From Mycobacterium phage prophiGD11-3, in sequence record MW584155.1: a DNA stretch of 54,740 nucleotides. The stretch is one strand, 5' to 3'. The position numbers and the translations under genes were made by a program. The notes beneath the pieces are model-generated. The model made no database searches. It was not told where the DNA came from and was given only the letters and a program-made list of their open reading frames with translations. The stretch's first letter is position 1. Each line of letters opens with the position of its first letter. Positions 1,559 through 3,023 of this stretch are shown here, piece by piece.

Positions 1559-2332
1559 ATGCCTAACGTTGAGGTCAATGGCCAGTCGATCCACTTCACC
1601 GATCAGGGACAGGGCCCCGTCTTCCTGGCCAGCCACGCCACGCTCATGGATATCGTTTCGCTGGAACGGTTGACCAGCCGAATCCCTGGCCGCGTGGTGG
1701 CGTTTGACCTACGCGGCCACGGCAAGACGGTGTACGACCAGAAGCCCTATGACTACAACGATGTCGCGCGGGACGCGCTGGCTCTCGCGGACCACCTCGG
1801 CGTTGAGCGGTTCACGTTCCTGGCTGAGGGGCAAGGCGCGGTCGTGGCGCTACGCACCGCGCTGGCTGCACCGGACCGCGTCGAACGGTTGATCCTGATA
1901 GGTCCGACAGCTGACGCCCCGTCGGTCAGCGAAAATGCTGCGCTGGATGCGTCCATGGACGTGTGGTGCACCCTGGGCCCCGACCCCGAGGTCTATCACC
2001 TAGTTGCCCAATACGCGACCGGCACACCAGAGGACGCGGCCGACTTACTGAAACGATGGAACCAATCAGCCTGGCGGGACTACAGACCTGCCGCCGACGC
2101 GCTGGCTAACCGGACCCGGTTCGTCGACCAGCTACACCAGATCAAGTGCCCGACGCTCATCGTCCACGGCACCGGCGATTTCTACGTGCCGATCGAGCTT
2201 GGCCGCGAGGTCGCGGACAACCTAGGTGGGCCGGTGAAGTTCGTTGAGCTGCCGACTGAGCGTCAGGCCATCACCGTCGCGTTCGACCCGCGTGTCGGTG
2301 ACGCGGTGCTCAGTTGGCTTGACGGTCGGTGA
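1559..2332 (+). CDS. alpha/beta-fold hydrolase (cargo gene)
   Basis: FDLRGHGKT...GQGAVVAL...IVHGTGD pattern of alpha/beta hydrolases; divergent from int; frame-checked ATG. Confidence 0.7.
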   Translation: MPNVEVNGQSIHFTDQGQGPVFLASHATLMDIVSLERLTSRIPGRVVAFDLRGHGKTVYDQKPYDYNDVARDALALADHLGVERFTFLAEGQGAVVALRTALAAPDRVERLILIGPTADAPSVSENAALDASMDVWCTLGPDPEVYHLVAQYATGTPEDAADLLKRWNQSAWRDYRPAADALANRTRFVDQLHQIKCPTLIVHGTGDFYVPIELGREVADNLGGPVKFVELPTERQAITVAFDPRVGDAVLSWLDGR

Positions 2333-3023
2333 CTGCGCCCAGCAGCAGGACACCCGACTGTCCGGTTGTGCGCCACGCCCTCATGTCGAGGGTGAGCATG
2401 TCTCCTGTATCAAGGTCGCGTATCACCCATGGCCGGGTAGCGGGGTCGACGGGGATGATCTGCGAATCCCACTGTCGCTGAAACACTTTGATAGGTAGCA
2501 GGCTTCGCACTACAGATTGCAAGCCGTCGTCGTCGGGCGATACGGCCAGCCCGAACCGCAGGAGGCCGACGCACCACTCGGACGTTGCTGTCCAGTTCTG
2601 GATGACGTCGAGCGCTTTGGTGGAGTGGTAATGCCAGTGCACCAGGTTGGGTGTGATCCACACACCCTTGAACAGCCGCATGAACTCGTCGTTTGCCTCT
2701 TCAACCGTCCATGCCGCGCTCATCCAAGCAGCCGGGTGAGGGTTGAGGGCCTGTAGGTAGGTTCGCACGTCGGGCAGTGGAACTGTGGTCTCCGCTGGCA
2801 TCTTGCCCCCCAATGCATACAAGTAGCGGGTTTCCCATGACGATAGCCCCAGCGCCTTGCTGATGGCGTCGGAGCCAGAGGCGGGCGGGTTATGGGTGTT
2901 GGTCTCGACCTGCCGAATCCACGACTCGGAGTACCCGGTGAGCGAGGCGAGCTGCGGGCGAGTTATACCACGACGTGTACGGGCCGCGCGGACGAATGAT
3001 CCAAGATCATTGCGCGGAGCCAT
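2310..3023 (-). CDS. XRE-family HTH regulator with ~160-aa C-terminal ligand-binding-like domain; an alternative candidate for the true immunity repressor
   Basis: N-terminal RRGITRPQLASLTGYSESWIRQVE helix-turn-helix; convergent 23-bp 3' overlap with the hydrolase gene. Confidence 0.65.
   Translation of the reverse strand: MAPRNDLGSFVRAARTRRGITRPQLASLTGYSESWIRQVETNTHNPPASGSDAISKALGLSSWETRYLYALGGKMPAETTVPLPDVRTYLQALNPHPAAWMSAAWTVEEANDEFMRLFKGVWITPNLVHWHYHSTKALDVIQNWTATSEWCVGLLRFGLAVSPDDDGLQSVVRSLLPIKVFQRQWDSQIIPVDPATRPWVIRDLDTGDMLTLDMRAWRTTGQSGVLLLGAVTDRQAN

Follow-up and report, generated by a model that had tools for sequence, protein, structure and literature searches.

What do the two convergent genes that lie between the integrase gene and the immunity repressor gene of Mycobacterium phage prophiGD11-3 encode, and do they belong together? 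prophiGD11-3 (sequence record MW584155.1) is an M. abscessus prophage of 54,740 bp, assigned to cluster MabF and to attB-3 (Dedrick et al. 2021, PMC8092301), and its whole sequence is called the window here. The first 6 kb of the window show 98.3% identity to Mycobacterium phage prophi62-2 (MW584175; M. abscessus GD62), in which both genes are already annotated in generic terms. The names in use are 'hydrolase' or 'esterase' for one gene and 'HTH protein' (HTH, helix-turn-helix) for the other. M. abscessus is a drug-resistant pathogen against which phage therapy is being tried, and the cargo of its prophages is suspected to influence both its physiology and its susceptibility to phages.

An earlier interpretation made from the letters of the window alone (the sequence-only reading) had described an alpha/beta hydrolase on the + strand and an HTH protein of 237 amino acids (aa) on the - strand, with 3' ends that overlap by 23 bp. 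The listing of open reading frames (ORFs) and a direct reading of the sequence gave the same strands, lengths and overlap:

1559-2332, + strand: alpha/beta-fold gene, 257 aa, TGA stop codon at 2330-2332
2310-3023, - strand: regulator gene, 237 aa, stop codon at 2310-2312
2310-2332: overlap between the 3' ends of the convergent pair, 23 bp

Our preferred reading, which we hold tentatively and at slightly less than even chances, is that the two genes form a conserved and self-contained prophage cargo cassette, in which a ligand-responsive regulator and a non-catalytic alpha/beta-fold partner make up a sensor with a DNA-binding output.

Identity of the two proteins

The regulator is composed of two domains. 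Its N-terminus matches Pfam HTH_31 (residues 6-61, E 5.4e-10), and its C-terminus matches Pfam MLTR_LBD (PF17765; residues 84-227, E 1.2e-14) with 55.2 bits against a cut-off of 26.3. The AlphaFold2 (AF2) model has a predicted local distance difference test (pLDDT) value of 92.7 and contains five helices in residues 7-71. When the PDB was searched with the family profile, residues 4-188 matched the MltR structure 3pxp (E 1.3e-4). When the AF2 model was searched with Foldseek, the two 3pxp chains were the only matches at E <=0.001 (260 aligned columns, E 1e-9), and matches to HTH folds were also obtained. The template modelling (TM) score between the regulator and 3pxp was just 0.54, which may be explained by a different domain orientation. 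A PDB search with the single regulator sequence did not recover 3pxp, whereas the profile and fold searches did. The regulator thus joins an XRE domain for DNA binding to a pocket domain of PAS-like type, and it belongs to the MmyB-like family. The sequence-only reading had seen a small-molecule-sensing domain in the C-terminal ~160 aa, and this view is borne out by the MLTR_LBD match above the Pfam cut-off and by 3pxp as the sole full-length fold match. MmyB-like regulators hold a hydrophobic ligand in the PAS-like domain, which in MltR is the fatty acid myristate, and their genes adjoin an enzyme gene that is presumed to be under their control (PMC3406030).

The partner protein keeps the fold of a hydrolase. 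It matches Pfam Abhydrolase_1 (E 2e-15), and Foldseek gave TM scores of 0.85-0.87 to esterases (4uhd) and to PcaD (2xua). In its AF2 model (pLDDT 94.4), residue 91 is the single turn residue that leads from the strand of residues 85-90 to the helix of residues 92-103. The profile comparison with the PcaD structure 2xua (E 8e-22) places a Gly opposite the catalytic Ser. An alignment of 19 mycobacterial clade members with 51 canonical relatives gave the following residues at the catalytic and neighbouring positions:

Nucleophile: Gly91 in the window, within A-E-G-Q-G-A (codon 1829-1831); G in 18 and L in 1 of 19 clade members; S in 44/51 canonical relatives
Catalytic His: Gln236 in the window (codon 2264-2266); Q in 16 and H in 3 of 19 clade members; H in 48/51 canonical relatives
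Oxyanion motif: H-A in the window; HA in 18/19 clade members; G at the second position in 43/51 canonical relatives
Residue 90: Glu in the window; E in 19/19 clade members; never E in canonical relatives
Acid: Asp207 in the window (kept); D in 17 and E in 2 of 19 clade members; D in 46/51 canonical relatives

The elbow motif Sm-X-Nu-X-Sm-Sm of the window protein is without a Ser, Cys or Asp nucleophile. Across 14 cassette types, which reach down to 38% identity, the elbow reads E-G-Q-G or E-L-x-S, and Ser occupies the nucleophile position in none of them (0/14). The boundary of the family is sharp: about 31 clusters score at least 270 bits, all the named ones coming from Mycobacteriaceae, and the nearest relative with intact Ser and His (P0292) has 37% identity and 162 bits. 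In NCBIfam, the protein scored far under the cut-offs of all enzyme families, for example 75.6 against 255.85 bits for PcaD. Since the nucleophile is replaced across the clade and the catalytic His in most of it, the family is sharply bounded and the NCBIfam scores are low, we conclude that the alpha/beta protein is very probably not a hydrolase. Of the name 'alpha/beta hydrolase' in the sequence-only reading, the fold is retained on the evidence of Pfam, AF2 and Foldseek, and the enzyme is given up, Ser and His having been replaced by Gly91 and Gln236. To our knowledge, no alpha/beta-hydrolase works with Gly at the elbow and no His. The lid of the cassette family is almost as conserved as the core (0.63 vs 0.68), compared with 0.31 vs 0.49 in the canonical relatives, and this near-core conservation fits a conserved binding surface.

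An active esterase was also considered, including a macrolide esterase, and was rejected; the macrolide-esterase scores in NCBIfam lie far under the cut-offs. The label 'esterase' is found in GenBank on two homologues, prophiGD05-3 gp6 (4841-5620 of locus L037; L numbers are our handles for loci) and prophiGD03-1 gp3 (L036 1875-2669). The prophiGD03-1 copy has the elbow E-G-Q-G and no Ser, and the prophiGD05-3 copy is 81% identical to the window protein. The label is probably wrong for both.

Inheritance and genomic setting of the pair

Loci were collected from species genomes, IMG/VR, encoding-contig look-ups and deposited prophages. The two genes are convergent with a 3' overlap of 21, 23, 26, 29, 30 or 59 bp in 13 of the 14 diverged cassette types, and the pairwise identities of the two proteins are correlated with each other (r = 0.82; 91 pairs from the 14 types). 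For regulator homologues of at least 46% identity, the alpha/beta gene was present alongside in every locus examined. The ratio of nonsynonymous to synonymous substitution rates (dN/dS) against homologues was 0.05-0.24 for the alpha/beta gene and 0.03-0.29 for the regulator gene; many of the pairs compared are saturated at synonymous sites, and the unsaturated pairs gave 0.03-0.10. L020 was used in this calculation, not L019, which contains an in-frame stop. The window and most other loci have no interruption in either reading frame. The two genes are real and not chance ORFs, as is seen from the Pfam matches, the confident AF2 models and the dN/dS values of 0.03-0.29 over both genes, and the pair is inherited as a unit under purifying selection.

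The comparison of the window with prophi62-2 gives a closer view of this selection. The two differ at 33 positions clustered in 2348-2763, where the ligand-binding domain of the regulator is encoded, and almost all of these are third codon positions. Around this patch, just two differences fall in the integrase gene and the repressor gene is identical, and the regulator protein is 98.7% identical between the two prophages despite the 33 differences. The region 2348-2763 looks like a recombinant patch that is under strong purifying selection.

Broken copies of the cassette were also observed. The alpha/beta gene has an in-frame stop at codon 48 in L019 (3738-4511) and at codon 10 in M. ostraviense (L005 8001-8798), and M. 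chelonae (L002 8001-8862) holds truncated remnants of both cassette genes.

The cassette is found beside integration functions in several M. abscessus prophages (prophi62-2, prophiGD05-3, prophiGD02-2, prophiGD90-1, prophiGD91-2, prophiGD03-1 and L040) and in prophages of M. immunogenum (L028), M. marinum (L026) and M. canettii (L039). Its neighbours there are tyrosine integrases in either orientation or a serine integrase. The repressors alongside are annotated as separate genes, range from 92 to 335 aa and number at least five different ones, and in every prophage examined the cassette directly adjoins the immunity region. At two loci, no phage gene occurs within 7 kb of the cassette. In one of them, from Mycobacteroides sp. 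CBMA271 (L031), the cassette is flanked by genes for an M23 peptidase and a UvrD/PcrA-type helicase; in the other, from a Logan (sequencing-run) assembly (L034), it has a 3-hydroxyacyl-CoA dehydrogenase gene on one side and carboxylase-type genes on the other. A plasmid search found no copy of the cassette and only distant regulator homologues with 28% identity.

In the window, the sequence-only reading had assigned the pair to a cargo slot between the integrase and the repressor. The annotation of prophi62-2 agrees with the four flanking genes listed here, and the pair is cargo in the integrase-proximal slot:

118-1452, - strand: tyrosine integrase (Pfam Phage_integrase; prophi62-2 annotation), divergent from the alpha/beta-fold gene
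3228-3506, - strand: annotated immunity repressor, 92-aa XRE HTH (prophi62-2 annotation), divergent from the cro-like gene
3647-3844, + strand: cro-like HTH gene (agrees with the prophi62-2 annotation)
3841-4056, + strand: excise gene (agrees with the prophi62-2 annotation)

The 92-aa repressor is 100% identical to prophi62-2 gp4, and the regulator gene follows the repressor gene after 204 bp, reading in the same direction. The literature on prophages of M. abscessus and Mycobacterium (PMC8092301, a later Mycobacterium prophage survey, and the 'unusual prophages' and MabR papers) does not discuss the pair.

Further genes accompany the cassette or its regulator in other prophages. Homologues of a membrane protein of ~250 aa, 50-99% identical, are encoded divergently from the MmyB-like regulator gene in six other Mycobacteroides prophages (L035 5351-6109, L038 4262-5020, L036 3534-4277, L028 9665-10450, L030 1863-2621 and L040 5038-5817). 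The 3' end of the membrane-protein gene overlaps an opposite-strand gene, which in prophiGD02-2 and prophiGD03-1 is the annotated immunity repressor, and a second convergent overlapping pair is formed in this way. The window has no homologue of this membrane protein, which could be a target of the regulator or a part of those immunity cassettes. In three prophages (L035 2478-3500, L038 1399-2421 and L037 4146-4667), the immediate neighbour of the cassette is an acetyltransferase gene, which in one case also encodes a membrane domain. These genes are further cargo of the same slot and are absent from the window.

At the ends of the prophage we made the following observations. The first ~60 bases of the window (1-64) have counterparts inside other M. 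abscessus prophages (97%) and inside about 16 Gordonia phages (90-92%), and this segment is probably the attachment-site core that they share. ARAGORN found no tRNA gene within the window. At the opposite end of prophi62-2, genes 80-82 (L041 6945-9994) encode a WXG-motif protein, a polymorphic toxin with a REase-5 domain and its immunity protein. By homology these genes correspond to about 50,900-54,400 of the window, in a comparison that covered the prophi62-2 genes only, and a prophage of the prophi62-2 type would carry cargo at both of its attachment junctions.

Candidate expression signals around the pair

Upstream of the two genes, the following candidate signals were located:

1547-1552, + strand: candidate -10 hexamer CAGACT, 6 nt upstream of the alpha/beta gene ATG (1559); weaker
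3030-3035, - strand: candidate -10 hexamer TACGTT, 6 nt upstream of the regulator ATG (3023)
3045-3054, - strand: box CGTCAAGATC, ~30 nt upstream of the regulator start codon
3130-3151: hairpin with a 7-bp stem between the repressor gene and the regulator promoter, a possible terminator separating the two leftward genes

Leaderless promoters of the TANNNT type are established in mycobacteria. A scan of 1-4200 for sigma-70 consensus promoters returned nothing, and the matches of a terminator scan in the region, including the hairpin at 3130-3151, were no more numerous than in shuffled sequence; for these reasons the promoters were inferred from the mycobacterial TANNNT/leaderless pattern. Neither gene of the pair has a Shine-Dalgarno sequence. 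Of 15 loci, 10 have a strict TANNNT 5-8 nt before the start of the regulator gene and 7 have one there before that of the alpha/beta gene, against a background of 1.1% calculated over all ATG/GTG positions of the same loci. When nANNNT was accepted beside TANNNT at the same distance, the alpha/beta gene had such a hexamer in 10 of the 15 cassette loci (background of nANNNT, 11.7%). The hexamer and the missing Shine-Dalgarno sequence persist where the flanking DNA is unrelated. Based on this pattern, each gene of the pair appears to be served by a leaderless promoter of its own.

The upstream regions of the two genes differ in their motifs. GTCAAG occurs in 6 of 9 upstream regions of the regulator gene, as GTCAAG(A) ~30 nt upstream, and in 0 of 9 upstream regions of the alpha/beta gene. 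Further CGTCAAGATC-like copies in the window are all located inside genes, where they probably reflect codon usage. GTCGTAG is found mostly in promoters of the alpha/beta gene, and TCACAG/CTGTGA is shared only within the closest lineages. Across the -10 and +1 positions of the window's regulator gene, there is an imperfect inverted repeat, TAC-N7-GTA. In three other lineages (L003 and L031, L039, L026), perfect palindromes of 15-17 bp with a T-rich centre span the same positions of the regulator promoter (CGTACTTTTTGTACG, GGTACTTTTTGTACC, GTGCAATTTTTTTGCAC). These palindromes are likely autoregulatory operators, and their position suggests that the regulator autoregulates. No second copy of the regulator-promoter sequence was found in the 54.7-kb prophage.

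The intergenic region between the repressor gene and the cro-like gene (3507-3646) has repeats of its own. It contains two copies of CCGTTTGG[TC]GT that are 21 bp apart and two copies of TGTCACAT, which are candidate operators of the immunity switch.

A possible two-part sensor, its rivals and its relatives

How might the two proteins work? We propose a two-part sensor because of two precedents, namely the ligand binding of MmyB-like regulators described above and the RsbQ/RsbP system. In Bacillus subtilis, the alpha/beta hydrolase RsbQ directly contacts the PAS domain of RsbP and feeds a signal to it; RsbQ-PAS modules occur in 45 other bacteria with phosphatase, kinase or cyclase outputs, and RsbQ requires its catalytic triad (PMC3183031). 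In the prophage, each gene would be read from its own leaderless promoter, independently of the immunity switch, and expression in the lysogen would be possible. The regulator would bind a small hydrophobic ligand in its PAS-like domain and would control at least its own promoter. The alpha/beta protein would hydrolyse nothing and would serve as a ligand-binding or regulator-binding partner, and the two proteins may jointly act as a two-part sensor with a DNA-binding output, comparable to RsbQ and the PAS domain of RsbP in Bacillus. Since overlapping convergent genes leave no room for a terminator between them, each transcript would run antisense into the other gene, which could couple their expression negatively. 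By analogy, the dead alpha/beta protein and the PAS-like domain of the regulator might even be a transcription-factor version of the RsbQ-PAS module, a pure receptor that is spread by prophages and serves the lysogen or the prophage in perceiving a lipid-like or lactone-like signal; this more specific form of the idea we consider unlikely.

Several observations weigh against a two-part sensor. When we looked for an operator common to both promoters with repeats, k-mers over nine cassette types and pattern scans of the whole window, nothing convincing was found, so that the idea of the regulator directly controlling the alpha/beta gene finds no support. In the lineage of the window, the palindrome at the regulator promoter is imperfect only. 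The polar lid residues E125, R166 and R185 are conserved and E90 is invariant, so an unconventional catalytic site is possible. RsbQ keeps its triad and needs it, while Gly and Gln stand at the corresponding positions here, which makes the analogy a loose one. The arrangement of the pair is also not universal: one cassette type is co-directional (L033), and in M. spongiae (L032 7001-7789) no regulator gene is called alongside the alpha/beta gene. RNA sequencing in the M. abscessus and Mycobacterium prophage literature covers no cassette-carrying prophage.

Other explanations of the pair were therefore weighed on the same observations. The two genes might be a regulated enzyme pair, in which unconventional residues (Glu90 and the lid) catalyse, the regulator is switched by the substrate or the product, and the function lies in metabolism or lysogenic conversion. 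In favour of this, the alpha/beta protein has an intact fold that comes nearest to those of enol-lactonases, esterases and lactone-binding receptors, MmyB-like regulators typically adjoin an enzyme gene that they are presumed to control (PMC3406030), and acetyltransferases are among the other cargo beside the cassette in some prophages. Asp207 is kept, several polar residues are invariant, and three clade members have the His. However, the nucleophile is gone, the general base is gone in most members and the oxyanion HG has become HA; residue 90 is the last residue of the strand, not the elbow residue, and the two promoters have no common operator. We regard an enzyme pair as unlikely. The metabolic conversion gene that had been offered as one possibility by the sequence-only reading is not supported, given the change of the nucleophile Ser to Gly91 and of His to Gln236 and the absence of Ser from the nucleophile position throughout the clade. 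It is rather improbable, in our judgement, that the pair serves prophage defence or superinfection exclusion, being expressed in the lysogen and blocking heterotypic phages with the regulator as sensor or controller. PADLOC gave no match for the alpha/beta protein and only generic matches to the HTH region of the regulator (RmrA and capH, residues 5-63), and the candidate effector is without catalytic residues and shows no toxin-like or membrane features. The loci without phage genes, L031 and L034, lie among housekeeping and metabolic genes, a mild argument against a phage-specific role. Such a role would nevertheless suit the integrase-proximal slot, a common seat of lysogen-expressed genes in mycobacteriophages (PMC8092301), as well as the occurrence of the cassette in many unrelated prophages with what appear to be its own promoters. 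Two specific candidates were rejected: a known defence system, for which PADLOC-DB gave no specific match, and a type II toxin-antitoxin system with an Xre antitoxin, given that the genes are convergent and not co-directional and that no toxin family was matched.

The position of the cassette directly by the immunity region in every prophage examined, and the regulator gene reading in the same direction as the repressor gene 204 bp upstream of it in the window, would also be compatible with an input to the decision between lysis and lysogeny, the regulator sensing a host metabolite or lipid and acting on phage promoters. We find this quite improbable: the regulator-promoter sequence occurs nowhere else in the 54.7-kb prophage, the cassette accompanies many unrelated immunity systems, and two loci have no prophage nearby. 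The sequence-only reading had further raised the alternative that the 237-aa protein, not the 92-aa one, is the true immunity repressor. The 237-aa protein does belong to the XRE family of DNA-binding proteins and is encoded on the same strand as the annotated repressor, but it is the 92-aa gene that stands divergent from the cro-like gene. Cassettes occur beside at least five annotated repressors, with tyrosine or serine integrases and at two loci without phage genes, and the regulator and alpha/beta genes are co-inherited whatever the immunity type. From this distribution it follows that the 237-aa protein is not the immunity repressor, and we judge the proposal almost certainly wrong. Finally, the pair could be decaying passenger DNA with no present function, as the broken copies in L019, L005 and L002 and the missing regulator call in M. 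spongiae would suggest. Against this, both genes of every intact pair are under purifying selection, the window and most other loci have uninterrupted frames, and the window copy has a dN/dS of 0.03-0.10 against its closest relative, so that decay is very improbable.

The two-part sensor is the reading that we retain, in the tentative form given above. What is new in this analysis is the MmyB-like identity of the regulator, the loss of catalytic residues in its partner, the fixed convergent overlap, the probable leaderless promoters and the wide mosaic distribution. For annotation this means that the name of an enzyme is probably a misnomer, that the HTH protein can be described as a putative ligand-sensing regulator, and that the two genes are one selected unit. 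An anonymous pair becomes in this way a testable hypothesis of a prophage-borne sensor of small molecules. Should its two proteins cooperate, they would be a rare case in bacteria in which the alpha/beta-hydrolase fold has been turned into a signalling partner without catalysis; otherwise, a modest correction of the annotation remains.

Among known systems, the closest in sequence and fold to the alpha/beta protein are the PcaD enol-lactonase, small esterases and lactone-binding receptors (2xua, 4uhd, D14), which have the same core and a helical lid. The cassette protein differs from the PcaD and esterase families in the changes of Ser to Gly, His to Gln and HG to HA, and it is a member of none of these enzyme families. 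The NDRG/Ndr family and the gibberellin receptor GID1 combine an intact alpha/beta-hydrolase fold with an incomplete triad and act by binding, not by catalysis, and their known examples are eukaryotic. The likeness of the cassette protein to them is limited to the intact fold and the incomplete triad; its weak match to Pfam Ndr (33.7 bits against a cut-off of 23.3) overlaps stronger matches to general alpha/beta-hydrolase models. Our literature search returned nothing relevant on bacterial alpha/beta pseudoenzymes.

With RsbQ and RsbP, the pair has in common that a separate alpha/beta-fold protein is encoded beside a protein made of a PAS sensor and an output domain. In RsbP, the PAS domain is N-terminal and is joined to the output by a coiled-coil, whereas in the regulator the PAS-like domain of MLTR type is C-terminal to the HTH and there is no coiled-coil. 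The genes form a co-directional operon in Bacillus and are convergent here, and the relation between the alpha/beta proteins is that of a shared superfamily. By this comparison, the likeness to RsbQ-PAS modules would be a resemblance in possible working, not membership. The cassette also resembles the 'morons' found by the attachment sites of M. abscessus prophages, such as polymorphic toxin-immunity cassettes (PMC8092301, PMC10654092), in location, in mosaic spread and in apparently having its own promoters. The proteins are different ones, and the terms 'hydrolase' and 'esterase' are never used for the cassette in these two papers.

The comparison with the MmyB-like family (MltR, which is Caur_2278, structure 3pxp; the family name comes from MmyB of Streptomyces coelicolor) concerns the regulator itself. 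Instead of a dehydrogenase or the product of an antibiotic-pathway gene, the cassette has as partner an alpha/beta-fold protein with a disabled catalytic site, whose gene is convergent with a 3' overlap and has no common divergent promoter region with the regulator gene; divergence is usual in the family but does not define it. The cassette is in addition mainly prophage-borne, and the identity of the regulator to MltR is only 16%. The domain order is nonetheless the same, an N-terminal XRE HTH followed by a C-terminal PAS-like domain, and as in this actinobacterial family, whose members adjoin a partner gene (PMC3406030), the regulator gene of the window stands beside a partner.

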